64,000 nucleotides of DNA from the NCBI GenBank assembly GCA_015063885.1, contig SVTH01000009.1, forward strand, positions 32,110 through 96,109, written 5' to 3'. Source of the DNA: Oscillospiraceae bacterium (lineage in GTDB: Bacteria; Bacillota; Clostridia; Oscillospirales; CAG-382). Shown piece by piece: positions 32,701-48,334 of the stretch (the stretch's first letter is position 1; every line of letters begins with the position of its first letter). A program made the position numbers and the translations under genes. The notes beneath the pieces are model-generated. The model had not been told where the DNA came from. It did not search any database and saw only the letters and a program-made list of their open reading frames with translations.

Positions 32701-32729
32701 TTGATTTCCTACATATTATGTGATATAAT
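32701..32729 (+). promoter_or_regulatory. sigma-A type promoter of the tip-adhesin gene
   Basis: TTGATT (32701-32706), 17-nt spacer, extended -10 TGATATAAT (hexamer 32724-32729), in a local AT-rich patch. Confidence 0.55.
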
Positions 32730-32787
32730 ATTATGTACGAATATTACTTTGGGGTTTTATATAGAAAAAGGGCAAAGGCCGATACTT

Positions 32788-35700
32788 ATGAACAGAAAAA
32801 CCTTATTTTCAATACCCTTCCCGCGGCAACGGTACGCCAACCGTCTTGTGGCAGTTTTCCTGCTGTCCATCGTCATTGTGACGGCGGTCTTCTGGCGTCT
32901 GAAGCTGACGGGCATCACCTTAGCCGGGGAAGCATTCTGCGGCATGGACGAACACACCCATACGGAGGAATGCCTGGCGGAAGGCTGTGAAAAGCAGGAG
33001 CACACCCACGTGGAGCTTTGCTATACCGATCCCGAGGCGGACGTGGAGACCGCCGTGGAGTGGGAGGCTTCCCTGGGGGAGTATGAGGACACGGTGTTCT
33101 ATACCTCCGACCTCCTGGCCGTGGCGGAAAGCCAGCTTGGCTATACCGAAAGCGAGCGGAACTTCACCATCTCCCAAACCGGCGCAAGATGCGGCTACAC
33201 CCGTTACGGCGCTTGGTACGGCAACCCCTACGGGGAGTGGTCCGCCATGTTCGTTTCCTTCTGTCTGGAGTATGCGGGGATCCCCGATACCTTCGCCCCC
33301 TACGGCGCAGGTGCGGAGACCATGCGTACCGAATGGGATCAAAGCGGCCTGCTGTTCGGCCGTGAAGAATACCTCCCCATCCCCGGGGACCTGATCTTCT
33401 TCGATACTGACGCAGACGGCAAGGCGGAAACCGTGGGCATCCTGTACAGCCACTCGGGCACCCGGATCACCGTGATCCAGGGGGACGTGGAGGGCGCCGT
33501 TGCCGCCGTCACGTACCTCCCCAACGACGGACGCATCCTCTCCTACGGCTCCATGAACGAAGTGATCCGTGCTTCCGCTACGGAAGACGAGCTGGTTCAT
33601 TTGGACTTTACCGCCAAATATCTGGACACGCTCCCCACCTACGAAGAGGTGGACGAGACCCTCACCTCCCTGGAAGAGGATATGGACGCATACGAGGCCT
33701 ATTTCCTGGAGGTGGGTAAGCAGGCACAAACGGCTTACACGCATTTGGAAGGCCTGGGCAGACTCCGGCCCCTGGTAAGCAACGCATACAAATCCCAAGA
33801 TCTGGAATGGATCTGGCAAGCCGAATCCTTCAAAACCATAGAGGCTCAGACCATCCCCGATCTTCCCGTTTACGCAGTCAACCCCAAGGAATCTCCCACC
33901 ACCGACGAAATCTTGGGGGGCAAAGGATACGGCACCATCATTTACGGCGGCTCCCCCGAAGAATATTACCTCTCGATTTATCCCGATAGTTACGATAATC
34001 GCCAGAGTGCTTCTTGCGGCTATTTCCAATGGTGGAAAGCCTACGTCATTGAAGCAGAACCCGGGGTAGGATATTACGTCAGCAAAATTCACTATTATTA
34101 CGGTGATGGGCAGACCAAGGAGAAGGTAAAGGCCACCAGCTCCACCGGTTTTGTGTATTTCATGCACTGCACTGACGATCTTTTCACCCAAACGCCGGAA
34201 ACCGAAATAATCCCTATCGGAACCTTTATCAGCGTGACTGTGCCCGAAGGTGCCGAGTCACTCTTCGCCATTGCGGACGGCGATACGTACCCGTACAAAA
34301 AATTCACCAAGGGCACCTTGCGCGGCACGTTGGTCACGGGAGACGCACCCCGGCAGAAGGATCCCATTGACAACTCCGACAAACTGACCACGGTTGAGAC
34401 CGTAGACACAAGTAAATACATCACCATCAACCTGTTCGATTACGGCGAAAAGGTCAGCGGTCTCTATAACACCAACGCTCCGTTCACCGGAAACGGGCCT
34501 GCTGCCGCCAACACCTTCTACCCTGCCTTTAAGCTGGGTTCGACCTCTGATCCCGCCACCAGCTCCAGCTGGAATTCCTTGTCCACTTTCGGCTTTGATC
34601 TTGGTAACCTGTTGGCCTACGACGTGGAACGCATGGACGGCGTCAATATCGAAGGCACCATCAACCAAGTAACAAACGACGTCTCTTCGCTTCAAGGCAA
34701 CGTTCCCTTGGTGGGCATGATGTACCCCACGCTGCTGGGCGATTACCCTGCCGTCTACGGGAATACAGAACATACCTCAACGCTTTCCTTGCAGTATCTG
34801 TTCCATCCGGACAGCGGATACACGAAACAGCAAAACACGGCCAACATCAACCACCTGTTGCAGTACGACGAAGAAACCGGCGCCTACTATTACGACAGCC
34901 GCAAGAACTTCGCTCAGTTCGATCACGCCACCAATAACTTCATCGTCTACGATCAGATCATGACCCCCGGCTTTGCGGTCTATCCCTTCGGCAACTTCAT
35001 GCCCCTCAACGACATCAGAACCCAGGCCACCCAAGTGACGTCTGTCAACAGAGAGTGGTTCAGAAACGTTGCCCACAGTGCATGGTATAAATACGTTCAT
35101 GCGGTGGATGCAGAGCACGTGGATCTTGAGGAATACAAAGATATCTATATTGCCATCTCCAAGCTGATCCCCTTGATGGACGATCAGGATGGCGACGGTG
35201 TGAAGAATTACGATTGGCATTACGGTGATGTTCTGAAAGCATATTTCAGCCAATCCGGAACTCCCGAGCTTCCCGAGGATCCCGCGGCCGGTCCCAATGC
35301 CCGCCCCCATCTTTCCAACCTGTACACCTTGGATTACGACGAGCCCACCAACTTCCATTTCGGCATGGATATGCACATGGAGTTTATGATGCCCAAGGAC
35401 GGCATGACGGGCAAAGACGGCAAGCAAGAAATGATCTATAAGTTCTCCGGGGACGACGACGTTTGGGTCTATATCGACGACGTGCTGTTCCTGGATCTGT
35501 CCGGTACCCACCGTCACGTGGGCGGTGAGATCAACTTCGCCAAGGGCGAGGTGTATTACTACTATCTGGACACCACCAAAGGCGACGTTTACACCTACGA
35601 AGAGCTTATTGCCGCCGTCGCCGCAAACGACACCACGAAGGGACGGATCGTCACCTTTGCGGAGATCCTGGAAAACGCAGGCAAATCCACGGACGTGCTC

Positions 35701-37494
35701 AATGCCAAAGGCACCTTCGAAAACTACACCGAGCACCAATTTGACTTCTACTATATGGAACGCGGTGCAGGCTCCGGCGTGTGCAGTATGTACTTCAACA
35801 TGCCCCTGCTCCAAACCAACCGTATCGAAGTTGTGAAGGAAATGAACGAAGAGGCCGCCAATGCCTTGGGCAACCCCGAGTTCCTGTTCCAGATTCTGAA
35901 GGTTGATGGCGCCGGCAATAAAACCGAGGAGCCTCTGTACGCACCCGGCACGCCTTACCAAGTGTTGGACGTGTACGGCAACGTGATCGCCACCCGCACG
36001 GTGGGAGAAAACGGCGTGTTCTATCTCCACGCCAACGAGCGTGCCGATTTTGCGATTCCCGAAAACGGCGGTTCCTACTACGTCCGCGAGCTGTTGGACG
36101 AAAAGGTATTTGAACAGTACGGCAAGGTCACCGTGGACGGCGTTTCCTACACCACGGATACCTACACCAACGTAGAGCTGAGCTCAGACACCTTCAAGGG
36201 CGTAGAAGGCCCCGTCATGAACGCCAGCAGCGGCAACGCAAAATTCATCTTCGTCAACCACGTGGATCCTCACAAATACGGCACCTTTGAGATCTCCAAG
36301 ACTGCCAACGAGTATTCCGATACCGTCGCGCCCGGCACCTTTACGTTCTCGGTGATGTTCGGGGATCTTCCCCTGCCCGTGGGCACGCCCTACACCTTGA
36401 TCGACGCCAACGGCAACGAGACGGCCGAGACCGTCAAGGCGGCAGGCATCCTCACCCTGCAGGCGGGTCAGCGTGCGGTCTTCAACAAAGTCCTGGCAGG
36501 CACCAACGTCCTGGTGAAGGAGCTGGATGCGGAAAAATACTTCGTGGAATACACCGCAGAATATCCCGCGGGGACCGACTACCTCCTGACGGAGGACGAA
36601 AACGGCTACGTCACCATTCCCGTGGGCGCCTCCGTGACCTCGTCCCTTTCCGTGTACAACGACCGTAAGGGCACCAAGCTGGAGGTGACGGGCGGCAAGG
36701 AAGTTCTGTATGACGACGGAACGGCAGGCACCTACACCTTCGTGCTGGAGGAGGTAGACGAAAACGGCAACCTCCTTGCAGACGGCATCTACCTGGAGCA
36801 GACGATCACCGTAACGGAAAACGGCAGCTTTACCTTTACGCTGAACTACCCCGAGGAGACCACCCCGGGCACCTATTACTACCGGGTTTACGAGAAGGGC
36901 GCCGACGCCGCCGCAGGCGGTGACGAGACCCTGTTTCCCTTCACCGTGGCAGTGGAGAAGGACGAAAACGGCGTGTTGACGGCGACGGCTGACGGTGCAG
37001 ACGCCATCAAGTTTGTAAACCGTGACGTCCGCTCCCTCACCGTTTCCAAGACGGTGGAAGGCCTGGCCGATCCCGACGGGTACACCTTCGACTTCACCGT
37101 GAACGCCTCCGTCGGCGGCGTGCAGCTGAACGGCGAGTACCGCACCGACAAGGGAATCCTCGTATTCACCGACGGCGTTGCCACCTTCACCCTGAAGCAC
37201 GGTGAGTCGCTGACCATTCTGGATCTGCCCTACGGCACCGTCTGGACGGTCACCGAGGGACACGCTCCCGGCTTCTACACCGAAAATGCTGTGGGCGAGG
37301 GCGACCGTGTGATCGGCTCCTCCGCAAGCGGCGAGCTGAAGGAAAACGCTTCCGTGGCTTACTACAACATCGGCGGCGCAGAGCTTCCCGCCACCGGCGG
37401 CTTTGCCCGTGACCTCTTCCCCTTGATGGGCTCCGTGCTGATGCTGGGCTCTACTGCAGGGGCGGTCATCTACCGCAAGAAGCGGAAAGAATAA
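32788..37494 (+). CDS. giant LPXTG-anchored surface protein, probable pilus tip adhesin (degenerate CHAP-like domain, fibro-slime/PA14-like domain, Cna-B/isopeptide-type repeats)
   Basis: Start MNRKTLF at 32788, downstream of the promoter. It has an N-terminal signal anchor and a CHAP-like region (YGEWSAMFVSFCLEYAG...PGDLIFFD...TVGILY). FSGDDDVWVYIDDVLFLDLSGTHRHVGGEINF is a fibro-slime/PA14-type motif. TYTFVLEEVDENGN...YYYRVYEKG is a pilin isopeptide-linkage-type domain. The C-terminal sorting signal is LPATGG plus a hydrophobic helix plus RKKRKE. Confidence 0.8.
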   Translation: MNRKTLFSIPFPRQRYANRLVAVFLLSIVIVTAVFWRLKLTGITLAGEAFCGMDEHTHTEECLAEGCEKQEHTHVELCYTDPEADVETAVEWEASLGEYEDTVFYTSDLLAVAESQLGYTESERNFTISQTGARCGYTRYGAWYGNPYGEWSAMFVSFCLEYAGIPDTFAPYGAGAETMRTEWDQSGLLFGREEYLPIPGDLIFFDTDADGKAETVGILYSHSGTRITVIQGDVEGAVAAVTYLPNDGRILSYGSMNEVIRASATEDELVHLDFTAKYLDTLPTYEEVDETLTSLEEDMDAYEAYFLEVGKQAQTAYTHLEGLGRLRPLVSNAYKSQDLEWIWQAESFKTIEAQTIPDLPVYAVNPKESPTTDEILGGKGYGTIIYGGSPEEYYLSIYPDSYDNRQSASCGYFQWWKAYVIEAEPGVGYYVSKIHYYYGDGQTKEKVKATSSTGFVYFMHCTDDLFTQTPETEIIPIGTFISVTVPEGAESLFAIADGDTYPYKKFTKGTLRGTLVTGDAPRQKDPIDNSDKLTTVETVDTSKYITINLFDYGEKVSGLYNTNAPFTGNGPAAANTFYPAFKLGSTSDPATSSSWNSLSTFGFDLGNLLAYDVERMDGVNIEGTINQVTNDVSSLQGNVPLVGMMYPTLLGDYPAVYGNTEHTSTLSLQYLFHPDSGYTKQQNTANINHLLQYDEETGAYYYDSRKNFAQFDHATNNFIVYDQIMTPGFAVYPFGNFMPLNDIRTQATQVTSVNREWFRNVAHSAWYKYVHAVDAEHVDLEEYKDIYIAISKLIPLMDDQDGDGVKNYDWHYGDVLKAYFSQSGTPELPEDPAAGPNARPHLSNLYTLDYDEPTNFHFGMDMHMEFMMPKDGMTGKDGKQEMIYKFSGDDDVWVYIDDVLFLDLSGTHRHVGGEINFAKGEVYYYYLDTTKGDVYTYEELIAAVAANDTTKGRIVTFAEILENAGKSTDVLNAKGTFENYTEHQFDFYYMERGAGSGVCSMYFNMPLLQTNRIEVVKEMNEEAANALGNPEFLFQILKVDGAGNKTEEPLYAPGTPYQVLDVYGNVIATRTVGENGVFYLHANERADFAIPENGGSYYVRELLDEKVFEQYGKVTVDGVSYTTDTYTNVELSSDTFKGVEGPVMNASSGNAKFIFVNHVDPHKYGTFEISKTANEYSDTVAPGTFTFSVMFGDLPLPVGTPYTLIDANGNETAETVKAAGILTLQAGQRAVFNKVLAGTNVLVKELDAEKYFVEYTAEYPAGTDYLLTEDENGYVTIPVGASVTSSLSVYNDRKGTKLEVTGGKEVLYDDGTAGTYTFVLEEVDENGNLLADGIYLEQTITVTENGSFTFTLNYPEETTPGTYYYRVYEKGADAAAGGDETLFPFTVAVEKDENGVLTATADGADAIKFVNRDVRSLTVSKTVEGLADPDGYTFDFTVNASVGGVQLNGEYRTDKGILVFTDGVATFTLKHGESLTILDLPYGTVWTVTEGHAPGFYTENAVGEGDRVIGSSASGELKENASVAYYNIGGAELPATGGFARDLFPLMGSVLMLGSTAGAVIYRKKRKE

Positions 37495-37501
37495 CAAAAT
37501 A

Positions 37502-37945: not shown

Positions 37946-38521
37946 TTATTCACAACGGATCAACGTATACTCGCCGCCGTAGGTATTCCTGGCGAACAAG
38001 GTGAGGGCGTATTCATCCTTACACAGGTTCTCACGGGAGACGTCCGACGTTTTTTCCACCCATTTCACGGTGTAGGTGTACCGCACCCCTGCGGTATCAA
38101 TGACGGAAAGGGTGTCTCCGATGGAAAGCATCTCCACGCAGGCAAGCTGTCCTTTGGCGTCACTGCCGCCCACCACCAGGGTACTGTCGTGAACACTGCC
38201 TGCATAGCGGCGGGGATATTCCCCCACCGAGCCGCCGTCCCATGCGTTTGAAACGGGCAACAGAACGTCGTAGGCGGGGATTTCCAGCACGGCGCAGAAA
38301 TCCTCTCCCCCCAGCTCCAACACGGTCATTTCCACGTTCAGCCTGCCGTCGGGGGCACCGTCGGCAACGGGGGGCATCAGCTCCAGCATTTTTTCCGCCG
38401 TCTCACGGGCGAGGGTTGCGTTCCGCCCCGCCATCCAATGGGAGCCCAGGAAGAGCACCACCGCAGACACCGCCAGGAGGATCCCCAAGATCATCAAAAC
38501 ACGGGAAAGCTTCTTTCTCAT
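37946..38521 (-). CDS. sortase-fold protein lacking the canonical catalytic His and Cys (pseudo-sortase)
   Basis: It has an N-terminal TM anchor and the sortase-like strands AVLEIPAYDVLLPV and IGDTLSVIDTAGVRYTYTVKWVEKTSDV. VVGGSD replaces the (I/S)AHR(G) His motif and ALTLFARNTYGG replaces TL(I/L)TC. A C-terminal TLIRCE retains Arg. It overlaps the minor pilin gene by 4 nt. Confidence 0.6.
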   Translation of the reverse strand: MRKKLSRVLMILGILLAVSAVVLFLGSHWMAGRNATLARETAEKMLELMPPVADGAPDGRLNVEMTVLELGGEDFCAVLEIPAYDVLLPVSNAWDGGSVGEYPRRYAGSVHDSTLVVGGSDAKGQLACVEMLSIGDTLSVIDTAGVRYTYTVKWVEKTSDVSRENLCKDEYALTLFARNTYGGEYTLIRCE

Positions 38522-39456
38522 ACGTCAACCCTGCCGGTGCGCACGGCGACCATCACCAACGCCGCCCCTCCGAAGAAGAGAAGCAGGATATAGGGCCAAA
38601 GGATGCCGGTATCGCCGGGAGAGGGAGTGCTTTCGGAGCTGTCCTCCGAGGGGATGTAGGTATTGGTCACCGTAAAGGTGGTTCCGTTTTGCTCCACGGT
38701 CACGGTGTACGCTTCGGAAACGTTCAGCTCCGCCACCGTCCAAAGGCTTCCGTCGTCGGGAGCCGTCCAGGTGTGGCACCAGTCGTTCTCCCCGGAAAGA
38801 GTCACGGTCTCCCGGAGGACGCCGTCCTTGTAGATGGCTACCTCGACGGATGCGGGGCGTTCCACGCCCAGGGCGTCCTGCCATTGCTTCACCACGCTGT
38901 AGGTGATCTCCCGGTCCTCCACAGGATGGCTTTCCTGCTTGGGAATGGCGGTCACGTCGTAAACGGGCAGGCCGTCTCCGCCCTCGCCGGGCAACGCCAC
39001 CAGGAAGGTCTCGAAGCGATAACCCCTGCCGCCGTGCTCACGGTATTGGGTGGGGATCAGATACAGCCCCGTCTCCAGGGATGCAAAGGACGCCTTGCCC
39101 TCCCCGTCCGTCACGGTCTTTGCCGTGGGGGTGATCCCGTCGGCCAGGAGGTAAGCGTAGTAGGTCTCCGCCACCTTGCGCCACTCTCCCTGGGTGGTCA
39201 CCCGAGAGAGATCAACGGGGTATTCCGCAAAATCGCCTGCGGGAGCAAAGGATTCCCCGCTCCACACGGCAACCTTGTAAACTGCGATTTCCAGCCCTTC
39301 AAAGGGAGTGCCGTCCCCGGTGTACACCACCGTCAGGGAGCAATCCTTCTCCGGATCCACCAACGAAGGATCAAACGCCCCCGCCGTGGCGCCGAAGACG
39401 CCGCAAAGGAGTACCGCACACAGCAGATACAGCAGGATCTTTTTTACGTGTTTCAT
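38518..39456 (-). CDS. minor pilin / Cna-B-type surface protein with non-canonical sorting signal
   Basis: It has a signal peptide MKHVKKILLYLLCAVLLCGVFGATAGA and a Cna-B-like domain (YSVVKQWQD...VEVAIYKDG...WTVAELNVSEAYTVTV). The C-terminus is SPGDTG plus a hydrophobic helix plus RTGR. It overlaps the sortase gene by 4 nt. Confidence 0.7.
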   Translation of the reverse strand: MKHVKKILLYLLCAVLLCGVFGATAGAFDPSLVDPEKDCSLTVVYTGDGTPFEGLEIAVYKVAVWSGESFAPAGDFAEYPVDLSRVTTQGEWRKVAETYYAYLLADGITPTAKTVTDGEGKASFASLETGLYLIPTQYREHGGRGYRFETFLVALPGEGGDGLPVYDVTAIPKQESHPVEDREITYSVVKQWQDALGVERPASVEVAIYKDGVLRETVTLSGENDWCHTWTAPDDGSLWTVAELNVSEAYTVTVEQNGTTFTVTNTYIPSEDSSESTPSPGDTGILWPYILLLFFGGAALVMVAVRTGRVDV

Positions 39457-40289
39457 TCGTCTCCGTCGCTCGCTTTCTTTACAGGCTTAAACAAAACGAT
39501 GAGCATCAGCACGAACAGGATGGGCAGTGCCACGATGGGGGTAACGATCAGGGTGTCGATCTGATAAGCGTCCGTGGTGATGTAAATGGTATGGTGTTCT
39601 ACGGTCTCGATCCGTCTGCCCCGCACCAAAAGCCGCTCGGTGTTGATCCCGTAGGGGGTGCAGGTCAGCAGGGTGCAATAATCTCCCCCATCCACCAAAG
39701 CCAGCTCCGATACGTCGGAAGGCTCCACGATGCGGATGCGGTCCACCTGGTAGGTGAGGGTACGGTCCAGAATGGTGATGGTGAACACGTCCCCGATCTC
39801 CATTCTGTCCAGGTCGGTAAACAGCTTGGCGCTGGGAAGTCCTCGGTGGGCAGAGATCACGGTGTGGGTGGTCTCCCCGCCTACGGGAAGGCTGCTGCCC
39901 TCCAGATGCCCGATGGCCACGTTCAGCACCGCCGCAGAGGTGCCGTGGTACAGGGGAAGCTCAATGCCGATCTTGGGAATGGTGGCGTACCCCATCATGC
40001 CGTTGCCGTTGAGGTCCAGGATCTCGTAATAGTCCGGCACCCTGCCGTAATGGAGCAAGGGATAATCCAGCTCCGCCAGGGCGCGGTTGTATTCCTCCGC
40101 ACGCTCAAACAGGGCGGTGTAATCCTCTTTTTGGATGTTGTTCAGCATGGCCTCGTAGTCCACGATGGCCTGGGACTGGGTGCGGGAGTTCCAATAATCC
40201 GCCAGGGCGGGGTACAGCATCACCGAAAGCCCGATGAAGAACAGCAGAAGCAGGATAAAAGTGGGCCATTTTCTTTTTTTCATTGCCAT
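39453..40289 (-). CDS. class C (pilin-polymerising) sortase
   Basis: It has an N-terminal TM helix and the YPALADYWNSRTQSQ motif. The catalytic motifs VISAHRG, TLLTCTPYGINTERLLVRG are present. A C-terminal second TM helix is typical of class C. Confidence 0.85.
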   Translation of the reverse strand: MAMKKRKWPTFILLLLFFIGLSVMLYPALADYWNSRTQSQAIVDYEAMLNNIQKEDYTALFERAEEYNRALAELDYPLLHYGRVPDYYEILDLNGNGMMGYATIPKIGIELPLYHGTSAAVLNVAIGHLEGSSLPVGGETTHTVISAHRGLPSAKLFTDLDRMEIGDVFTITILDRTLTYQVDRIRIVEPSDVSELALVDGGDYCTLLTCTPYGINTERLLVRGRRIETVEHHTIYITTDAYQIDTLIVTPIVALPILFVLMLIVLFKPVKKASDGDE

Positions 40290-40424: not shown

Positions 40425-41861
40425 TCAGTCAGCGATCTTCTCCATTCTCTTCTTGGTTACCAGCAGGATACCGGTGCACAGCATCAGACCGCCGCCGATG
40501 AGAATGAACATGGTAGTACCGAAACCACCGGTCTCAGGGAGAACCGCACCGGTCTTGTTGATAATGTGGGTATCTGCATCATCCTTAGTGTAGATATCGC
40601 TGTCGATAACACCTACCAAAGTCTTGTTTGCGTCGCCAATGACAACAACTTCACGACCGCTCAGTTCGTTATAGCCGTCGGGAGCATTGGTCTCTTCCAA
40701 ATAATATGTTCCGGCAGACAGACCCTTAATTGTAGCCTTACCGTCCTTGGTGGTAATAACAACACCGGTCTCTCCTTCGGTAGCAACGCGATAAATGCCT
40801 TCTGCTTCTTTCACCACTTTAATCTCTACGCCGCCAGTTGGGTGAGTATAAAGTTTAAACTCAGCGCCATCCAAAATGGGGTATTTGTCTTCGCCGGTCG
40901 TCTCTTTAGTCTTCACAAATTCAAACTTGTAGGTGGTAACTTCAGCTTTCACAGGATCAGTTGCGGTGAGATCATTCTCATCGCCATATTCCAAATGTGC
41001 TTCGTTGGGGTTGGTGCCATCGCCCTTAACCTTTGCGTTTTCGTTCAGAATCGCATGATACTTGATTACGATCTTCTCGCTGGCATTCAAGGTTTTGATA
41101 TACTCGTTGTCAAAAGCAATTTCAAAAGTGCAATCGTCACTAGGATTTCCATAACCATCAGTAATAGCCGTTTTGATGGTGTATCCCGTGGTGGGCACAG
41201 TCGTCAAAACACCCCCGTCATCGATTTCAACGGAGTCGATCTGCACGAAATCCAAGCCTTCGGACATTTTATCGTGCACGGTATAGTTTTCAGCGCCGCT
41301 TCCCACAGTAACGGTAATGGTATAATACACAGCCTGACCAATGGTCACAGAACCGCTGCCCACTTCCTTCTCAATACCGGGAACAGTGTTCTTCTCTTCA
41401 AAGTAGAATACTTCGTTATGCGTGTTCAAAGCGCAAAGAGCGCCAAGCGTGGAATCAACCAAATAATAACCAAAGTTCAAGCCTGCAAACTCGACAGTAT
41501 CGCCGGAAGCAGTGGCAGTGGCATTCGGAGTCATACCCGCCGCATATTTAAGTGCCTCCTGTGCCAACTCTACCATTTGGGTCTCGTTGGGATGTACCAC
41601 TTCTACCAAATAGCCTTCGATGTTGATTTCAAAATAAGCCGCACCTGCGCCGGTTTTGAAAAATTTCTCCCAATCAGACAACGGCTTGTAAGAGTACGAA
41701 TCGCCGGAGAAGCTTTCAAGAGTAGCCAACTGATAAACGCTATACTTTTGGCCGCTAACAGTATTATTGATGGTGATAGAGCCACTACCAGCCGCCAAAA
41801 CGGGAATACAGCATGCCACCAACAGCATTGCTGCGCAGAGGATCGCTAAAAGTTTTTTCAT
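40425..41861 (-). CDS. major (backbone) pilin, LPXTG-anchored
   Basis: It has a signal peptide and the E-box GTYYLEETNAPDGYNEL. The sorting signal is LPETGG plus a hydrophobic helix plus KKRMEK. Confidence 0.8.
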   Translation of the reverse strand: MKKLLAILCAAMLLVACCIPVLAAGSGSITINNTVSGQKYSVYQLATLESFSGDSYSYKPLSDWEKFFKTGAGAAYFEINIEGYLVEVVHPNETQMVELAQEALKYAAGMTPNATATASGDTVEFAGLNFGYYLVDSTLGALCALNTHNEVFYFEEKNTVPGIEKEVGSGSVTIGQAVYYTITVTVGSGAENYTVHDKMSEGLDFVQIDSVEIDDGGVLTTVPTTGYTIKTAITDGYGNPSDDCTFEIAFDNEYIKTLNASEKIVIKYHAILNENAKVKGDGTNPNEAHLEYGDENDLTATDPVKAEVTTYKFEFVKTKETTGEDKYPILDGAEFKLYTHPTGGVEIKVVKEAEGIYRVATEGETGVVITTKDGKATIKGLSAGTYYLEETNAPDGYNELSGREVVVIGDANKTLVGVIDSDIYTKDDADTHIINKTGAVLPETGGFGTTMFILIGGGLMLCTGILLVTKKRMEKIAD

Positions 41862-41914: not shown

Positions 41915-42517
41915 TTAGTCCATCCACTCCAAGGAATCAAAAGGCCAGATGCGGAAGAGGATCTTACCCACGATCTGATCATCAGTTACACAGCCGATCA
42001 CGGTACTGCGGCTGTCGATAGAAGTATCTCGTTGATCCCCCATCAAAAAGAACTGATTTTCCGGCACCTGGAAAGGAAACTCCACGTCACACTCTCCCAA
42101 GGCTTTCACCGTCAAATAGGGCTCGTCCAGATATTCTCCGTTGACGAATACGTTGCCTTCGCCGTCGATCTCGATATAATCCCCCGGAATGCCGATGACA
42201 CGCTTGATCAAGATCTTGTTGGAGTAAGAAAAGGCGCACAGGTCACCCCTGTCGGGGTCCTTGGTCTTGGCAAGCACCACGATATCCCCCTCGGTGAGAG
42301 TGGGCTCCATGCTGGTCCCTGCGATCTGCACCACGGGAAGCACCAGCGTGGCAATGAGCACCGCCACCGCCGCCACCACGATCAAGGCGTATACCGTGCT
42401 TTTCAGCACCCGCTTGTATCGCAGCTTGTATTTTTCTCGTTTGATCTCGCCCTGCAGCTGCTCCGCGGAAGGGAGGTTCTGCAGAGCGTCTGCGTTGTTC
42501 TTCTCGTTCTGCTTCAT
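41915..42517 (-). CDS. signal peptidase I (S26 family), pilus-locus associated
   Basis: The catalytic Ser box IAGTSMEPTL and Lys box ILIKRVIGIPGD are present, along with GDQRDTSIDSR. The start MKQNEKNN at 42517 overlaps the upstream stop in an ATGA. Confidence 0.8.
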   Translation of the reverse strand: MKQNEKNNADALQNLPSAEQLQGEIKREKYKLRYKRVLKSTVYALIVVAAVAVLIATLVLPVVQIAGTSMEPTLTEGDIVVLAKTKDPDRGDLCAFSYSNKILIKRVIGIPGDYIEIDGEGNVFVNGEYLDEPYLTVKALGECDVEFPFQVPENQFFLMGDQRDTSIDSRSTVIGCVTDDQIVGKILFRIWPFDSLEWMD

Positions 42518-42837
42518 GTCTCTCCGTCTCCGTCGGCGCCTTCTTCGGGAAGCTGTTCCCATTCCACAGGGTCCTGAGCTTCCTCCAAATGTTGGCTGAG
42601 CCGCCGTATATTCTCCAGGTACTGCGCCGCGGCGGCCTCCGCCGCCTCAAAAACGCCGTTGAGCTTCAGTGCCGCCTCCGCAATGGAGCCTGCCTCCATC
42701 TCCGCAATGTTGCGGTCGGAAAGCCGCTTTTCCAACTGTGCCAGCTTGCGCTCCAACTGATCCGCACGGTCCGTTTGCATCAGCAAAAGCTCCAGAAGCT
42801 GCTTGCGGTTGAGTTTCTTCAGTTCCTTCTCTGTCAA
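42514..42837 (-). CDS. small coiled-coil protein of unknown function, first gene of pilus operon
   Basis: 107 aa, heptad-rich (LKKLNRKQLLELLLMQTDRADQLERKLAQLEKRL), with an acidic tail. It is translationally coupled to signal peptidase I. Confidence 0.55.
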   Translation of the reverse strand: MTEKELKKLNRKQLLELLLMQTDRADQLERKLAQLEKRLSDRNIAEMEAGSIAEAALKLNGVFEAAEAAAAQYLENIRRLSQHLEEAQDPVEWEQLPEEGADGDGET

Positions 42838-42876
42838 GCAATCAGCCGCCTTTCGCTTTTATGGAGCATGAGTACC

Positions 42877-42899
42877 ACAGAATATAAAATATGTAGCAT
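42877..42899. repeat. left inverted repeat of candidate invertible promoter segment
   Basis: ACAGAATATAAAATATGTAGCAT. 19 of 23 positions are identical to the reverse complement of 43093-43115. Confidence 0.7.
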
Positions 42900-42912
42900 A
42901 TCATCCTTTTTC

Positions 42913-42940
42913 ATTATAGCACGATTTTTTCAAAAAGCAA
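42913..42940 (-). promoter_or_regulatory. sigma-A type promoter of the pilus operon, located inside the IR-flanked segment
   Basis: On the minus strand: TTGCTT (42940-42935), 16-nt spacer, extended -10 TGCTATAAT (hexamer 42918-42913). It lies about 75 nt upstream of the first start codon. Confidence 0.6.
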
Positions 42941-43004
42941 GATATACATTTAATTTTTTTGAATAATTATTCAAATTTTTCCGCAAAAACTGTAAACAGT
43001 GTAC

Positions 43005-43050
43005 AAAAAAAGAAGCCGACGATTGTGCAGTTTTTCATCGGCCTTTTTTT
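43005..43050 (-). terminator. bidirectional terminator after the recombinase gene
   Basis: GCCGACGA/TCATCGGC hairpin flanked by an A-run (43005-43011) and a T-run (43044-43050). Confidence 0.6.
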
Positions 43051-43092
43051 CGCGCCCAAAACTGAGGGGTAGGGTATTCCGTTTTCTGCCGG

Positions 43093-43115
43093 ATACAACA
43101 TATTTTATAATATGT
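43093..43115. repeat. right inverted repeat of candidate invertible promoter segment
   Basis: ATACAACATATTTTATAATATGT. Its reverse complement ACATATTATAAAATATGTTGTAT pairs with 42877-42899. Confidence 0.7.
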
Positions 43116-43133
43116 AGTCCGTTAAACCCCTAT

Positions 43134-43973
43134 TCACGACCGCAAGCGGCGGCAGGCCAGCTCCAGATGCGCCCGATGTTGGTTCCCGTCCTCCACGGTG
43201 TAGATGCGTGTGGTGTTGATACTGCTGTGCCCCAAAAGGTCGGCCAGCCTGACGATGTCACGGCAAACGGCGTAAAAGGTTCTGGCAAACAGATGGCGCA
43301 GATTGTGGGGGAACACCTTCTCCCGCTTCACTCCCGCACGGCGGCAGAGGGCTTTCATCTCCCGCCACACGTTGGAGCGGTTCAGCGGCTTTCCGTGCCC
43401 CGTGACGAACACGGCACCCGTTCGGATGCCCTTCCTCTTCAAATAGCCTCTCAGAGCCTTTCTGAGCGCCTCGGGCAGAAAGATCACGCGGGTCTTGTTC
43501 TTGCAGTTCACCACCGCCTTCCCCGTTGCCACGGCCTCTGCGGTGACGTAGCGCAATTCGCTGATGCGGATCCCCGTCTCGCAGATGGTGCGCAGGACGT
43601 AGGCGATCCTGCTCTCCCCCGCCGCACGGAGCAACGCGCGGTAGTCGCCCTTGGTCAGCTCCCGTTCCTCACTGCAGAACAATTGCTTCTGTACCCGGGG
43701 CAGGCGGACACAGCAATCCTCCCTGCCCATAAAGCGGAGCAGGCAATTGAGGGACACCAGCATAGAGCACACGCTGGCAGGGGCGTAGCTCTCCGAAAGC
43801 CGGCGCTTGTAGGCCACCGTCTCCCCCTTGGAAAGGGGTCTGTCCTCCAGAAAGGCGAGGAACCTCCGCCCGTCCCGCAGGTACTTTTCCACGGTGGCGG
43901 GACTCTTTTCCCCGTTTTGCAGGAACTCCCGAAATTGCTCTGTCAGCGCTTTTGCCTCCTTGTTTACGTTCAT
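43134..43973 (-). CDS. tyrosine site-specific recombinase (XerC/D / phage-integrase family)
   Basis: It has an N-terminal SAM-like domain. The catalytic signature is ETGIRISELRYV (Arg), HNLRHLFARTF (His-x-x-Arg) and LLGHSSINTTRIYT (His ... Tyr). Confidence 0.85.
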   Translation of the reverse strand: MNVNKEAKALTEQFREFLQNGEKSPATVEKYLRDGRRFLAFLEDRPLSKGETVAYKRRLSESYAPASVCSMLVSLNCLLRFMGREDCCVRLPRVQKQLFCSEERELTKGDYRALLRAAGESRIAYVLRTICETGIRISELRYVTAEAVATGKAVVNCKNKTRVIFLPEALRKALRGYLKRKGIRTGAVFVTGHGKPLNRSNVWREMKALCRRAGVKREKVFPHNLRHLFARTFYAVCRDIVRLADLLGHSSINTTRIYTVEDGNQHRAHLELACRRLRS

Positions 43974-44043
43974 GCTTTACCTCCAAAAAATCGAACGGAT
44001 CCTTTCCGAGAGCTCTCCCGAAAAGGATCCGTTTTTTTACTGA

Positions 44044-44886
44044 TTACGGTTGAATTTCCACCGTTTCCGCCCAGGCGAAGATCTGCTCCCGATACGCTTC
44101 CGCATCGGTGAAATGGGTGGCGAACTGTAGGATCCACACGCCCTTTTCCGTCACCATGGGAAAGAAGAAGCTGTGGAACTCCGTCCCTGCGATCTTGTTG
44201 GGAGCCTCGAAATAGGTCAGCTCCCCGTGGGATTTGACGTAGACTTCATTTTCAAAGCCATAGCCCTCGATCAATTGGGCGGCCAGATCCTTTACGGGAA
44301 GGTCTTTTCCGTCCGCACCCGCTTCAAAGGGCAGGAATTCCACACAGCAAAGCACCTCGGGAGACACGGCGTAAAGCTCAAAGCCTCTCTCCGACTCCTC
44401 TGTAAAATCCTCCGTCAGAGTGATGGTAAACGCCCCTGCGGTGAAGTCCTTCCCGGTGATCAGCAGGTTGCAGACGATCACCGCCGCCAACGCCAAAAAG
44501 ATGAGAAGCACCCCGCGCTTAGCCAGGAATTGCACCTTCTGCCCCTTCCGCAGAGCGTTCCGCTCCTCCTGGGGGTAAGGCTCCAGCTCCCCGTGGAAAC
44601 GGAAGGCGGGATCCCCGAAGGCGTGGCCGCCCGCAAGGGAAATATCCCCGTCCCCGCTGGGGATCTCGCAGTAGTCGTAGATCTTTTTCTTCCTGGCTAC
44701 GTACACCCGTGCCAGCTTTTCCCCGATGGAAAAGGTCTTGGTCTCTCCGTTGCCGATCTCCCCCAGCCTGCGGCAGGGAGTGGTCCCGAAGGCGGCGTCG
44801 TTGGATTCCCAATCTTCAATATATACCGTGTCTTTTTTGCCCTTTCCCCAAAAGCAAGCCTCTCTGCGTATCGTCAATTCTCTCAT
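44044..44886 (-). CDS. hypothetical bitopic membrane protein
   Basis: 280 aa with a single central TM helix (GVLLIFLALAAVIVCNLLI). I recognise no family motif. Confidence 0.5.
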   Translation of the reverse strand: MRELTIRREACFWGKGKKDTVYIEDWESNDAAFGTTPCRRLGEIGNGETKTFSIGEKLARVYVARKKKIYDYCEIPSGDGDISLAGGHAFGDPAFRFHGELEPYPQEERNALRKGQKVQFLAKRGVLLIFLALAAVIVCNLLITGKDFTAGAFTITLTEDFTEESERGFELYAVSPEVLCCVEFLPFEAGADGKDLPVKDLAAQLIEGYGFENEVYVKSHGELTYFEAPNKIAGTEFHSFFFPMVTEKGVWILQFATHFTDAEAYREQIFAWAETVEIQP

Positions 44887-44958: not shown

Positions 44959-44987
44959 TTTACATTTCCGAAAAGCTGTGCTATACT
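44959..44987 (+). promoter_or_regulatory. sigma-A type promoter of LytTR module 1
   Basis: TTTACA (44959-44964), 17-nt spacer, extended -10 TGCTATACT (hexamer 44982-44987). Confidence 0.55.
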
Positions 44988-45016
44988 ACCTCCGAAAAGA
45001 ACCACGGAGGCAGACC

Positions 45017-45727
45017 ATGACCTATCGCATCGCCCTTTGCGACGACGAGCCCGCACAGAGAGAATATCTGGAGAAAAAGCTTTCCCTGTTTGCCCAGGCG
45101 CGGCGGGTGCAGTTTGACTTCGCCCATTTTTCCTCGGCGGAGGCGTTTTTGTTCTGCTTCCGTGAGAACCGCAACATCGACTTGCTGTTTTTGGATATTG
45201 AGATGGCGGAGATGAACGGCATTGAGCTGGCCAAGGAGCTCCGCAAGGAGCAGGACGCTCTGCAGATCGTCTTCATCACAGGCTACCCCGATTACGTGGG
45301 GCAGGGCTACGACGTGGAGGCCTTACACTACCTCCTCAAGCCCGTGAGCACGGAAAAGCTGTTTGAGGTCTGCGACCGCTTTTTGAAGACGGCGGAGGAA
45401 CAGCCCCGCTTTTACCTGTTCCCCGCAGGGAAGGAAGTGGTGCGCCTTTACGAGAAGGAGATCCTTTACGGAGAATCGGAGGGGCATTACGTGATCTTAC
45501 ACACCAAGACGGAGGAGCTGAAGCTCCGCATGACCGTCCCCGAGCTGGAAAAGCGGCTGGGAGAAGGGTTTTTCCGCCCCTCCCGCTCCTTCGTGGTGAA
45601 CCTGCGGTACGTCACCCGCATCGCAAAAACGGAGATGCTTTTGGAAAACGGCGCGTCCGTCCCCTTGGGAAAGGGACTTTTCGACGAAGCCAATCGGGCG
45701 TTGATCGCCTTTTTAAGGGAGCTTTGA
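45017..45727 (+). CDS. two-component response regulator, receiver plus LytTR DNA-binding domain (module 1)
   Basis: MTYRIALCDDEP...FLDIEMAEMNGIELAKEL is the receiver with its phospho-acceptor Asp. The C-terminal part FFRPSRSFVVNLRYV is the LytTR domain. A GGAGG RBS precedes the start. Confidence 0.85.
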   Translation: MTYRIALCDDEPAQREYLEKKLSLFAQARRVQFDFAHFSSAEAFLFCFRENRNIDLLFLDIEMAEMNGIELAKELRKEQDALQIVFITGYPDYVGQGYDVEALHYLLKPVSTEKLFEVCDRFLKTAEEQPRFYLFPAGKEVVRLYEKEILYGESEGHYVILHTKTEELKLRMTVPELEKRLGEGFFRPSRSFVVNLRYVTRIAKTEMLLENGASVPLGKGLFDEANRALIAFLREL

Positions 45728-45728
45728 T

Positions 45729-46376
45729 ATGAGCAGACGGAGCGAAAAAAAGCTTGCCGCCTTTCAGAACGCCATTATGGAGCAGCATTACGCCGAGGTG
45801 GAGAACATCTACCGCAAGATGCGCACCTGGCGTCACGATTACCACAACCATATCCAGGTGCTGGCGGCCTATCTGGAGCAGGGAGACACGGAAAAGGCAC
45901 GGGAATTTCTGGGTGAGATCCAGGACACCCTCACCAAGGTGGACACGGTGCTGAAAACGGGGAACACCATGATCGACGCCATTTTGAACAGCAAGCTTTC
46001 CCTGATGCACGCAAGGGAGATCCGTGCTGACGCCACCGCAAAGGTGCCCGCCAAGCTGAGCGTGCGGGATATCGACCTGTGCGTCATCATCGGAAATTTG
46101 CTGGACAACGCCATGGAGGCCTGCGAGAAGCTTCCTGCGGGGAGCCGTTTTATCCGTATCTACATCAACGTGAAGGGAACGCATCTGTACATGTCCTTCA
46201 CCAACTCCGCAGGGAAAAAGCAGGAGAAGGTGGGAACGCTGTTCCGCTCCTCCAAGGGCGCCTTGGGCGGACTGGGGCTTTCACGGGTGGACAGCCTGGT
46301 GGCCGATTACGGCGGCTACGTCACCCGTGCTTCCGAGGACGGAGGCTTTACCACCGAGGTCATTTTACCCCTTTGA
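45729..46376 (+). CDS. soluble GHKL-type histidine kinase (AgrC/LytS-type catalytic core without membrane sensor, module 1)
   Basis: H-box RTWRHDYHNHIQVL, N-box IGNLLDNAMEA, G-box GGLGLSRV. No hydrophobic segment occurs in 215 aa. Confidence 0.75.
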   Translation: MSRRSEKKLAAFQNAIMEQHYAEVENIYRKMRTWRHDYHNHIQVLAAYLEQGDTEKAREFLGEIQDTLTKVDTVLKTGNTMIDAILNSKLSLMHAREIRADATAKVPAKLSVRDIDLCVIIGNLLDNAMEACEKLPAGSRFIRIYINVKGTHLYMSFTNSAGKKQEKVGTLFRSSKGALGGLGLSRVDSLVADYGGYVTRASEDGGFTTEVILPL

Positions 46377-46385
46377 ACTGAAATG

Positions 46386-46420
46386 CGCGGGATTTTTGTG
46401 CCAAAAATCCTGCGTTTTTT
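46386..46420 (+). terminator. terminator/attenuator between kinase and ABC genes (module 1)
   Basis: CGCGGGATTTTT-(5 nt)-AAAAATCCTGCG followed by TTTTTT. Confidence 0.65.
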
Positions 46421-46486
46421 GCCAAAACTCCCCGCCATGGGAGAAACTATGCTATGCTGAAGCCACTTCAAAAGGGAGGTGTCTGA

Positions 46487-48334
46487 ATGGCAAAAGACAA
46501 GAAACAAAAAGAACCCCGCCGCAAACCGAAATACGGGATGTGGACCTGTATCAAATGGCTTGCCTCCAAGCTGTGGGAATGGGACCGCGCCGCCGCCATC
46601 TGCTGTATCGCCGCCGTACCCTTGGCGCTGGTGCTCTACGGGCTGGGGCTGTACGTCCCCACCGCCACGCTGAACGTATTGGAAACGGCAGACGGATTCC
46701 CCACGGTGGCACTCACCGTGACCACCCTCCTGGTCACCCAGCTTTTCTTCCGCTTGCTGAAAACGGCGGCGGACGATCTGCGGGGGCTGGCCTACCACGA
46801 CGGTGCCATGCGGTTCTATTACGCCATCACCAAGAAGGGAGCATCCGACGATTTTTATTTGGATCTGGACAAGGAGTATCTCACCCGCAGACGCCGCGCC
46901 TTTGACGTGCTGCGGAACACTGCGGACGGCTCCCCCACCCATTACCTGCTGGACGGGGTCAACGCCCTGGTGAACGTGCTTTGCTTTGTGATGTTCGGCT
47001 CGGTGATCTCCCTGCTGCACCCTGCCATCCTGCTGCTGTTGGTGGCAGGCTCCCTGGTGACCCACTTTTTGCAAAAGCGGCAGCAGAACCGCAACCACGC
47101 CAAGGTGGATGAGCAGACGGCGGTGAACAAGAAGATCATGTATCTGGCATGGAACCTTTCCGCATATTCCGCCCCCGGGAAGGATATCCGCCTTTACGGC
47201 ATGACCCCCTTCTTCGAGTCCCGCGGGAAGAAGCTGATCAAGGAGCATATCCGCTTATTGAAATACCGCCAGAACAACCAATCGGTGGTCACCGTGGGAA
47301 CCCATTTGGTCACCGCCTTGCGGGACGGGGTGGCCTACGCCGTTTTGATCTACGCCGCCGTGGAGGGCAGGGTGACCCCCGGGGAGTTCGTTCTGTATTT
47401 CTCCGCCATCTCCCAGATGTCCGGCTTCATCGGCGGGATCATCGGGTATTTCGGCTCCTTCCACGAAATGAAGCTGAAGACCTCCGACTGTATCGAATAC
47501 TTAGAAGAGGATCACAACCGCCTGCGGAGAGAGGGCGGCATCCCCAAGCCCGAGGGGAGACCTCTTTCCGTGGAGTTCAGGAACGTGACCTTCAAATACC
47601 CCCAAGGGGACAAGAACGTGCTGGAAAACGTAAGCTTCAAGATGGAAGCGGGAGAAAAGATCTCCTTAGTGGGGCTCAACGGCGCAGGCAAAACCACCCT
47701 GACCTGGCTGATGTGCGGCCTGCTCCTCCCCGACGAGGGAGAGGTGCTGATCGACGGGCATTCGGTATACGAATACAACCGTGAGGATCTTTACAGCCTG
47801 TTCTCCCTTCTGCCCCAGCGGTATACCATCCTCCCCACCTCCATTGCGGAAAACGTGGCCATGACGGACAGGAAGGAGATCGACGACGCCCGTCTTTGGA
47901 GCGCCTTGGAGACCGCAGGCATTGGGGACAGGATCCGCCGTCTCCCCCAAGGGGTGGAAACGGGAATGAGCAAGGAGTTCGACGCCCAAGCGGTGAATCT
48001 TTCCGGGGGCGAGATGCAAAAGCTTCTGCTGGCAAGAGCCCTTTACCACCGTGCCCCCATCATGATCTTAGACGAGCCCACGGCGGCTCTGGATCCCATT
48101 GCGGAGCACGAGATGTATCTGAAATACAACGAGATTTCGGAGAATACCACCTCCGTGTTCATCTCCCACCGCTTGGCCTCCGCCCGCTTCTGCGACCGTA
48201 TCTACCTGCTGGACGGGGCAAAATTTGCGGAATGCGGCACCCACGAGGAGCTGATGGCCAAGGGCGGGAAGTACAAGGAGCTGTTTGACATTCAAAGCAA
48301 ATACTACAAGGAGGGTGCAAAAAATGACAACTGA
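46487..48334 (+). CDS. ABC exporter half-transporter (TMD-NBD), module 1 subunit A
   Basis: N-terminal TM domain. Walker A GLNGAGKTT, signature LSGGEMQKLLLARAL, Walker B IMILDEPTAALD. Confidence 0.85.
   Translation: MAKDKKQKEPRRKPKYGMWTCIKWLASKLWEWDRAAAICCIAAVPLALVLYGLGLYVPTATLNVLETADGFPTVALTVTTLLVTQLFFRLLKTAADDLRGLAYHDGAMRFYYAITKKGASDDFYLDLDKEYLTRRRRAFDVLRNTADGSPTHYLLDGVNALVNVLCFVMFGSVISLLHPAILLLLVAGSLVTHFLQKRQQNRNHAKVDEQTAVNKKIMYLAWNLSAYSAPGKDIRLYGMTPFFESRGKKLIKEHIRLLKYRQNNQSVVTVGTHLVTALRDGVAYAVLIYAAVEGRVTPGEFVLYFSAISQMSGFIGGIIGYFGSFHEMKLKTSDCIEYLEEDHNRLRREGGIPKPEGRPLSVEFRNVTFKYPQGDKNVLENVSFKMEAGEKISLVGLNGAGKTTLTWLMCGLLLPDEGEVLIDGHSVYEYNREDLYSLFSLLPQRYTILPTSIAENVAMTDRKEIDDARLWSALETAGIGDRIRRLPQGVETGMSKEFDAQAVNLSGGEMQKLLLARALYHRAPIMILDEPTAALDPIAEHEMYLKYNEISENTTSVFISHRLASARFCDRIYLLDGAKFAECGTHEELMAKGGKYKELFDIQSKYYKEGAKNDN

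Follow-up and report, generated by a model that had tools for sequence, protein, structure and literature searches.

The paradigm of an ON/OFF genetic switch driven by DNA inversion is fimS of Escherichia coli, in which the gene for a tyrosine recombinase lies beside a short invertible segment carrying the promoter of a fimbrial operon. fimS is 314 bp in length with 9-bp repeats, and is acted upon by two recombinases of different directional bias, with IHF, Lrp and H-NS as cofactors. We have analyzed a locus of this general kind in an Oscillospiraceae bacterium, an uncultured member of the Clostridia from the ruminant gut, lying in a stretch of 64,000 nt of contig SVTH01000009.1 that we shall call the window. 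An AT-rich spacer separates a gene for a tyrosine recombinase from a sortase-pilus operon, and it contains a segment bounded by inverted sites, which some public assemblies of the species show in one orientation and some in the other. On the basis of the sequences compared, we think it very probable that the locus is a phase-variation switch, in which the recombinase would invert a promoter segment controlling the operon. We use ON for the orientation in which the promoter points at the operon and OFF for that in which it points at the recombinase gene; the window is ON.

The original prediction for this locus had likened it to fimS with FimB and FimE. The analogy holds for the logic of the switch, but not for the kinship that it implies. 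The FimB/FimE-type models NF007370 and NF007371 score only 23.0 and 25.9 bits with the window recombinase (cut-offs 221-222) and match just its C-terminal 80 residues; moreover the protein has 279 amino acids where FimB-type invertases have about 200, and carries an N-terminal SAM-like domain. Membership of the FimB/FimE-type DNA invertases was therefore rejected. The window differs from fimS also in having a single, Xer-like recombinase, 18-bp palindromic sites in the style of Cre and Xer, a segment of 203 bp and Gram-positive sortase pili.

The sites themselves recall the Xer/dif and Cre/loxP systems, where inverted half-sites surround a short asymmetric centre that sets the orientation and must match between partners. 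The dimensions are different, 7-4-7 nt in the window as against 11-6-11 in dif and 13-8-13 in loxP, and the window sites would serve inversion between nearby sites, not dimer resolution. Bacteroides invertons share the switch logic of the window locus.

Two systems in Gram-positive bacteria are closer in setting. In Clostridioides difficile the tyrosine recombinase RecV inverts segments of 150-200 bp with imperfect repeats of ~21 bp at cwpV, flgB, cmrRST and pdcB, upstream of genes for surface structures (PMC5386303). The flagellar switch was first revealed by a genome whose segment matches only after inversion in silico (PMC5386303), i.e. by the same kind of first evidence as is presented here, and both organisms belong to the class Clostridia. 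However, the flagellar repeat AAGTT(A/G)CTAT(A/T)TTACAAAAAA is unrelated to the ACATAAT-N4-ATTATGT sites described below, and the flagellar switch acts after transcription initiation (PMC5386303). RecV is one unlinked enzyme serving many switches, whereas every switch of the window family is paired with a recombinase next to it and has a centre sequence private to itself. In Streptococcus zooepidemicus an invertible promoter beside the recombinase SZO08550 controls the LPXTG surface protein SZO08560, and in the flipped state it directs reverse-strand transcription of the gene for that recombinase (PMC2654543). That locus resembles ours in its Gram-positive host, its inverted-repeat promoter beside a recombinase and its sortase-anchored product; it differs in having 10-bp repeats, GTAGACTTTA, around ~115 bp, and in controlling one surface protein and not a pilus operon.

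The nearest description that we found is inverton group 139 in a catalogue of the gut community hCom2 (PMC11892184, Microbiome 2025). Of its 33 members, 32 lie in Clostridia, in 17 strains, with repeats of 14-26 nt and interiors of about 205-228 nt (Clostridium sp. D5 and Intestinimonas butyriciproducens). Nearly every one adjoins a tyrosine-type recombinase/integrase of invertase group 35, itself not under inverton control (PMC11892184). Mapped reads showed flipping to both orientations, with changes in the course of passaging and on comparing attached with planktonic cells (PMC11892184). By size, taxon, layout and annotation label, compared by description, the window family is probably inverton group 139 with invertase group 35. 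Cluster names were searched for a link between the family and named hCom2 strains, and gave only generic 'tyrosine-type recombinase/integrase' labels. The strains of group 139 are those of hCom2, whereas the window organism is uncultured, and the catalogue gives no half-site and centre anatomy, co-variation of centres, spacing periodicity or pilus operon (PMC11892184). In the literature we found no mechanistic account of the cassette family, nor of its site anatomy, private centres or helical phasing, nor of a sortase-pilus operon under such a switch in Clostridia. We regard the locus as a genuine inverton, most likely of a family that has been catalogued but not dissected.

Inverted sites and both orientations within the species

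The spacer between the stop codon of the recombinase gene and the first gene of the operon is 296 nt in length, with a G+C content of 35% compared with 50-63% around it. An imperfect inverted repeat had been predicted here, and all of its coordinates were reproduced: the arm at 42877-42899 matches the reverse complement of 43093-43115 at 19 of 23 positions, 193 nt separate the two arms, and the perfect 12-nt core, TATAAAATATGT, was confirmed in both. A repeat search extends the arms to 26 nt with 81% complementarity. Each arm contains an 18-nt core site made of two inverted 7-bp half-sites around an asymmetric 4-bp centre (Table 1). Distal and proximal sites have the same ATAA centre and lie inverted 221 bp apart, the recombinase-proximal one starting 18 nt past the stop codon of the recombinase gene (about 20 nt in the original estimate). 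Note that, the individual sites being near-palindromes, the pair scores at 79% as a direct repeat also; the inverted orientation is set solely by the asymmetric centre, which reads ATAA in one site and TTAT in the other on one strand.

It had been recognized at the outset that a short AT-rich core could arise by chance in such a spacer. The TATAAAATATGT core occurs twice in the window, both times in the arms, with ~0.05 matches expected by chance, and two occurrences were found in none of 100 shuffles. An equally good inverted repeat appeared in 12 of 2000 first-order Markov simulations of the spacer. Taken alone it is thus moderately significant, and to that extent the concern was warranted. 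On its own the repeat is suggestive, not decisive; the comparative data settle the case.

Contigs of the species were gathered by identity of the recombinase protein (six contigs) and then of the 107-amino-acid protein encoded first in the operon (ten more). The first six are all identical to the window and all ON. Five of the ten others carry the spacer flipped: L087, L088 and L093 (ENA ERZ28654306, ERZ28654327 and ERZ28653963), L092 (Logan SRR12529365) and L095, an NCBI metagenome-assembled genome (GCA_017466745.1). The unflipped contigs are L001-L006, L089-L091, L094 and L096, amounting to 10 distinct contigs. The flipped spacers match the window spacer inverted in silico at 286 of 296 positions, compared with 200 in the native orientation. 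These five OFF contigs belong to a sister allele, with the same 18-nt sites but with nine single-nucleotide differences and one indel in the spacer, and with a recombinase that differs from the window type by three amino acids (A7E, T150A and K181N), none of them a catalytic residue. A recombinase of 99% identity (P0001) was considered as the sister allele and rejected on comparison. A metagenome contig collection was uninformative on orientation; it also lacked the ON sequence known from the JGI contigs L001, L002 and L004 (3300018493, 3300024303 and 3300029705).

The sister allele also occurs unflipped, in L094, so that its total is five OFF to one ON, and this permits a direct comparison of the two states. 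Between L094 (ON) and L087 (OFF) there is no difference in the recombinase gene (840/840) or in the DNA downstream (617/617). In-silico inversion makes one spacer agree with the other without a mismatch for any breakpoint within the 12-nt core, while breaks outside the core leave two to four mismatches. The segment is thus found in both orientations in the same species with its breakpoints inside the repeats, as expected of the invertible element that was predicted. The contigs demonstrate a recent clean inversion only as a difference between populations.

Could the sites have nothing to do with a switch, the repeat being a product of chance, or the pair being attachment or dif-like sites for integration, excision or dimer resolution? 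Such an explanation might draw on the 0.6% of simulated spacers with a repeat this good, on the alignment of the sites as direct repeats, and on the fact that the best family matches of the recombinase are Xer proteins. Yet all the Xer models score far below their cut-offs, the asymmetric centres are inverted in 65 of 67 relatives (see below), and no contig without the segment, i.e. no excision product, was present among the species contigs examined. The existence of the flipped form with breakpoints in the core already contradicts it, and we regard its probability as vanishingly small.

A recombinase and its probable switch as a cassette in Clostridia

The recombinase, a single-copy gene in the window, has weak matches to SAM-like N-terminal domains in addition to its Phage_integrase catalytic domain. 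The tyrosine recombinase signature was described as intact, and R136, H223, R226, H249 and Y258 are indeed invariant in an alignment of relatives. Its top NCBIfam matches are XerA, XerD and XerC, all below cut-off (126.8 bits against 220, 102 against 330 and 97 against 335, respectively), and the XerS model gives 54 bits against 267. The nearest solved structures are those of archaeal XerA (4a8e and 5hxy), with XerD also among the closest. Assignment as a housekeeping XerC, XerD, XerA or XerS was rejected, since no model reaches its cut-off and the sites are paired and inverted beside the gene. Judged by its sequence, the recombinase belongs to neither the FimB/E nor the housekeeping Xer families, and from its position we presume it to be the invertase of the switch. 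In plasmid and phage records it is rare, with five and one matches of 35-51% identity, the best being on replicons of 330-500 kb; the cassette is therefore not obviously borne by small mobile elements.

Relatives were collected as 80 genome loci (L007-L086) with recombinases 48-68% identical to that of the window, 67 of them with enough downstream DNA for analysis; two assemblies contribute two loci each (L017/L057 and L034/L045). The genome loci in public databases number several hundred at least, and the recombinase clusters thousands. Among cultured carriers are Lactonifactor longoviformis DSM 17459 (L010), Anaerotignum lactatifermentans (L083) and Lentihominibacter faecis (L063). That the repeats should be conserved together with the recombinase in related genomes was a requirement set by the original prediction, and the same architecture is present in 65 of the 67 relatives, all in Clostridia, in the form of two inverted 18-nt sites ACATAAT-N4-ATTATGT. 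They often extend to ACAACATAAT...ATTATGTTGT, and, measured from the end of the stop codon, the first begins at between 5 nt upstream and ~100 nt downstream.

The 4-nt centre is the only variable part of the site. It takes 39 distinct values, none of which is palindromic where about four would be expected among 67, and within each locus the centre of the second site is the reverse complement of that of the first. Matching asymmetric centres are what the crossover region of a tyrosine recombinase requires, and the asymmetry fixes inversion as the outcome. The window itself has the family form, with paired sites having reverse-complementary, non-palindromic centres less than ~100 nt after the stop codon.

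The distances between sites are strongly periodic. In 51 distinct two-site loci they cluster at 220-222, 229-231, 240-242, 249-251, 259-264, 271-273, 283, 295 and 303-304 nt. For a period of 10.3-10.45 bp, with the phase close to zero, R in a Rayleigh test is 0.74, a value reached by none of 2000 random sets (null maximum 0.49); when each distinct distance is counted once, R = 0.62, reached by none of 3000 random sets. Kinship among the loci inflates these statistics, but it cannot yield nine separate clusters one turn apart. At 221 bp the window corresponds to 21.1 turns of 10.4 bp, in agreement with a family that lies mostly between 21 and 29 turns. We infer from these spacings that the sites would have to share a face of the helix in order to synapse in so short a loop.

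Each element has one strong predicted promoter of the extended -10 type, facing outward. In 47 of 51 two-site loci the distance from the best promoter match to the site that it faces is 15-60 nt (median 38), and in 40 of the 51 the match scores at or above the 95th percentile of shuffled interiors. In the reference genomes 42 promoters are directed toward the recombinase (OFF) and 19 downstream (ON). Exact inversions distinguish pairs of related genomes, as in L027 and L028, where 337 nt align on the minus strand at 96% identity and the flanks on either side align on the plus strand. The downstream genes of the relatives are co-directional and varied, encoding TetR regulators, BspA-like leucine-rich repeat, SPFH, zinc-ribbon, SLH, cohesin/dockerin and GGDEF proteins and M23 peptidases. 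The conserved unit of this large and uniform family is therefore the recombinase with its switch, set before varied surface and regulatory genes.

Only one of the 80 loci, L007, has the same pilus operon as the window, with a recombinase that is 68% identical. The interiors of the two elements align only when one is flipped, with a score of 49 compared with 1.5 unflipped (shuffled sequences gave -9.9 +/- 5.6, with a maximum of 8). The L007 promoter (TTGCTT...TGCTATACT) adjoins the recombinase-proximal site and points at the recombinase gene, and L007 is therefore OFF. Thus the window and its nearest relative with this operon are in opposite orientations, in keeping with an inverton.

We note some variants within the family. 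A number of relatives have three sites (L027/L028, L033/L052, L055/L064, L053, L058/L062, L072, L077, L081 and L051), arranged as two tandem copies 30-63 nt apart with one inverted partner. Related three-site genomes differ by inversion of the outer or the inner pair, e.g. with sites at +34, +96 and +349 in L027 and at +34, +287 and +349 in L028; these loci are nested switches with up to four arrangements. More distant loci, with 46% identity, are found on replicons of 335-504 kb in cultured isolates of Pusillibacter faecalis (L097, pMM59_01, region 430965-431810) and Monoglobus pectinilyticus (L098). The latter has canonical sites, ACATAAT-TTTG-ATTATGT, 278 nt apart. The former has a different repeat, GACAAAAACAACATTTCGT, upstream of a gene for an S-layer-homology protein, so that half-site specificity has diverged in this sub-branch.

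Contigs of the relatives often end close to the switch. In 15 of the 80 loci (L008, L018, L023, L031, L047, L039, L021, L069 and L070 among them) the contig ends within 400 nt past the stop codon of the recombinase gene, in several at 16-80 nt, compared with five of 80 within 400 nt upstream. The downstream ends probably reflect the breaking of assemblies at switches of mixed orientation.

Predicted promoter, pilus operon and proposed mechanism

The promoter that had been read within the segment, on the minus strand and pointing at the pilus operon, is present as described (Table 1). Its extended -10 element, TGnTATAAT, is perfect, and the distal site, which the promoter faces, is 18 nt beyond the end of the -10 hexamer. 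It is kept in the sister allele as TGTTATAAT, and also in L007.

We propose the following mechanism. Dimers of the recombinase would bind the half-sites of both 18-bp sites, and closure of the 221-bp loop (~21 helical turns) would allow the sites to synapse. Strand exchange within the shared 12-bp core would then flip the 203-bp segment. In the ON state transcription from the promoter would cross the distal site and a ~70-nt 5' leader before entering the pilus operon, so that sortase-assembled pili could be made. In the OFF state the operon would lack a promoter; after 36 nt, transcription would instead run into the recombinase gene at its 3' end, and this gene would probably be transcribed in the antisense direction. 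Such antisense transcription would fit the excess of OFF genomes, and has a precedent in Streptococcus zooepidemicus.

A number of observations weigh against this proposal. The -35 hexamer matches the consensus at three of six positions, and for this reason the promoter is missing from the list of a consensus scanner; in Firmicutes an extended -10 can make up for a weak -35. The window-type allele was seen only ON, in nine distinct contigs. The five OFF contigs apparently come from one ruminant-gut study, and no single sample displayed both orientations. The arms in the window, identical at 19 of 23 positions, are less perfect than in most relatives. Lastly, expression of the recombinase is uncertain, because a strong terminator lies directly upstream of its ribosome binding site and no promoter for it is visible.

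These points might be explained if inversion is real but the window strain is locked ON, or strongly biased to ON, with an operon that is constitutive there. The cause could lie in the imperfect outer half-sites, in poor expression of the recombinase behind the terminator, or in the three amino-acid differences between the alleles. All nine window-type contigs being ON would agree with this, when set against five OFF to one ON in the sister allele, as would the terminator in the place where most relatives have a -10-like motif. However, the 18-nt sites are identical in both alleles and the catalytic residues unchanged. Furthermore, assemblies report the majority orientation only, so nine ON contigs are compatible with a switching minority. 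We consider a locked strain unlikely.

Still less likely is that the segment inverts without moving a promoter, regulation occurring after initiation, or that a recombinase encoded elsewhere acts in trans. Both have a counterpart in C. difficile, where a single unlinked recombinase acts on many switches and the effect of the flagellar switch comes after initiation (PMC5386303), and in the window the promoter is a predicted one with a weak -35 and the segment contains a terminator-like hairpin. But an outward extended -10 at a fixed distance from the site, scoring above shuffled sequence, is found in 47 of 51 relatives, whose segments gave no consistent hairpin in a simple scan. The recombinase lies beside the sites in 65 of 67 relatives with otherwise unrelated downstream genes, as predicted for a pair acting in cis.

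A hairpin terminating the recombinase transcript had been placed inside the segment. On the strand of the recombinase gene it folds at -20.3 kcal/mol (z = -3.8), bearing this out, with a 12-nt loop and one wobble pair; on the plus strand it is weaker (-12.2 kcal/mol, z = -0.74), and it is flanked by an A-run. It probably ends the recombinase transcript in the ON state. A simple scan of the relatives for a conserved bidirectional insulator found nothing consistent, although it also missed the hairpin of the window itself. The prediction had further proposed that a 16-nt palindrome, TTGAATAATTATTCAA, could be an operator. This is present at 42959-42974, upstream of the -35 hexamer, but the sister allele (L087) differs from it by three substitutions and L007 lacks it, and a conserved operator was therefore rejected; the chance probability of such a palindrome in the AT-rich spacer is roughly 0.02.

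The terminator upstream of the recombinase gene (43994-44033, minus strand) has an 18-bp stem folding at -28.2 kcal/mol (z = -5.0) and a U-run, and ends ~10 nt before the ribosome binding site, leaving no room for a promoter. Most relatives have a TGgTAAAAT-like -10 motif upstream of the recombinase in its place. A terminator in this position was rejected as a family trait, being found in nine of 81 loci by a crude criterion. Speculatively, the window organism may depend on read-through for all of its recombinase, and this would go well with a low rate of switching.

The coordinates of the locus are collected in Table 1. The gene identities proposed earlier were borne out for signal peptidase I, the LPETG major pilin and the class C sortase. 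An LPXTG major pilin and a class C sortase in one operon are characteristic of sortase-dependent (SpaA-type) pilus operons, and the window operon encodes both. The LPETG motif is at residue 441 of the major pilin, and is followed by a membrane span and a basic tail; a simple pattern for a YPKN-type pilin motif gave no match. The first gene, previously thought to begin with ATG at 42837, has TTG as its start codon, and this is kept in L007, where the corresponding protein is 74% identical.

Table 1. Coordinates of sites, transcription signals and genes of the locus in the window
Feature	Position	Strand or orientation	Details
Recombinase-proximal 18-nt core site	43098..43115	minus-strand reading ACATATT-ATAA-AATATGT	extended arm 43093-43118
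Distal 18-nt core site	42877..42894	plus-strand reading ACAGAAT-ATAA-AATATGT	extended arm 42874-42899
Invertible AT-rich segment	42895..43097	ON in window	203 bp
Predicted sigma-70-type promoter	42913..42940	-	TTGCTT-16-TGCTATAAT; extended -10, read from sequence
Terminator-like hairpin with U-run, for recombinase transcript	43005..43044	-	inside invertible segment
Xer-like tyrosine recombinase, presumed invertase	43134..43973	-	279 aa; Pfam Phage_integrase 7.5e-25
Coiled-coil protein, first operon gene	42514..42837	-	107 aa; no known family; TTG start
Signal peptidase I homologue	41915..42517	-	200 aa by gene callers (longest open reading frame to 42562); Peptidase_S26 2.8e-36, TIGR02227 3.7e-40
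SpaH/EbpB-family major pilin	40425..41861	-	NF033902 98 bits (cut-off 95); GramPos_pilinBB, SpaA
Class C (pilus-polymerising) sortase	39453..40289	-	NF033745 256 bits (cut-off 160)
Cna_B-domain protein, likely minor or basal pilin	38518..39456	-	Cna_B 8.2e-12; C-terminal hydrophobic tail, non-canonical sorting signal
Last co-directional open reading frame	37946..38521	-	191 aa; N-terminal membrane span; no family; operon membership suggested by overlap only

Convergent with the pilus operon is an open reading frame of 1597 codons (32701-37494, plus strand) that encodes a large sortase-anchored surface protein, with C-terminal DUF7601/DUF5979 domains, an LPATG motif, a membrane span and a basic tail. 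Long open reading frames on the minus strand that overlap it (32920-37497) have no family matches and are probably spurious. Upstream of the recombinase gene, 44044-44886 (minus strand) encodes a protein of 280 amino acids with no family match, found only in the window species. Divergent from this, 44978-48334 (plus strand) encodes a LytTR response regulator, a GHKL histidine kinase and an ABC transporter, resembling a peptide-signalling or bacteriocin-type module; we found no link between this module and the switch.

Significance for the organism and the family

The observations can be drawn together in a broader reading, held tentatively and falling somewhat short of probable, in which the window switch would be one copy of a portable, self-contained cassette of gut Clostridia with orthogonal private centres, a phased loop, antisense feedback and multi-state three-site variants, and would obey design rules so far undescribed. 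If this is correct, private and never palindromic centres would make paralogous cassettes orthogonal, in the manner of heterospecific lox sites, and would prevent chromosome-scale rearrangements. Spacing by whole turns (21-29 turns of ~10.4 bp) would imply synapsis in a tight, phased DNA loop. Antisense transcription in the OFF state would give a feedback that depends on orientation, and could explain the 2:1 excess of OFF genomes, while the three-site variants would provide nested multi-state switches.

The grammar of the sites is simple, comprising conserved half-sites, a private centre and phased spacing. It should make such switches easy to annotate in metagenomes, and would account for some recurrent contig breaks. 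The cassettes would offer compact, orthogonal pairs of recombinase and site for genetic tools in Clostridia.

To our knowledge, control of pili by invertible promoters is well documented in Proteobacteria and Bacteroidota, and barely so for the sortase pili of Clostridia. Pili are structures of adhesion and colonisation. If the locus functions as we propose, an uncultured bacterium of the ruminant gut would be able to switch its sortase pili by inversion of DNA.

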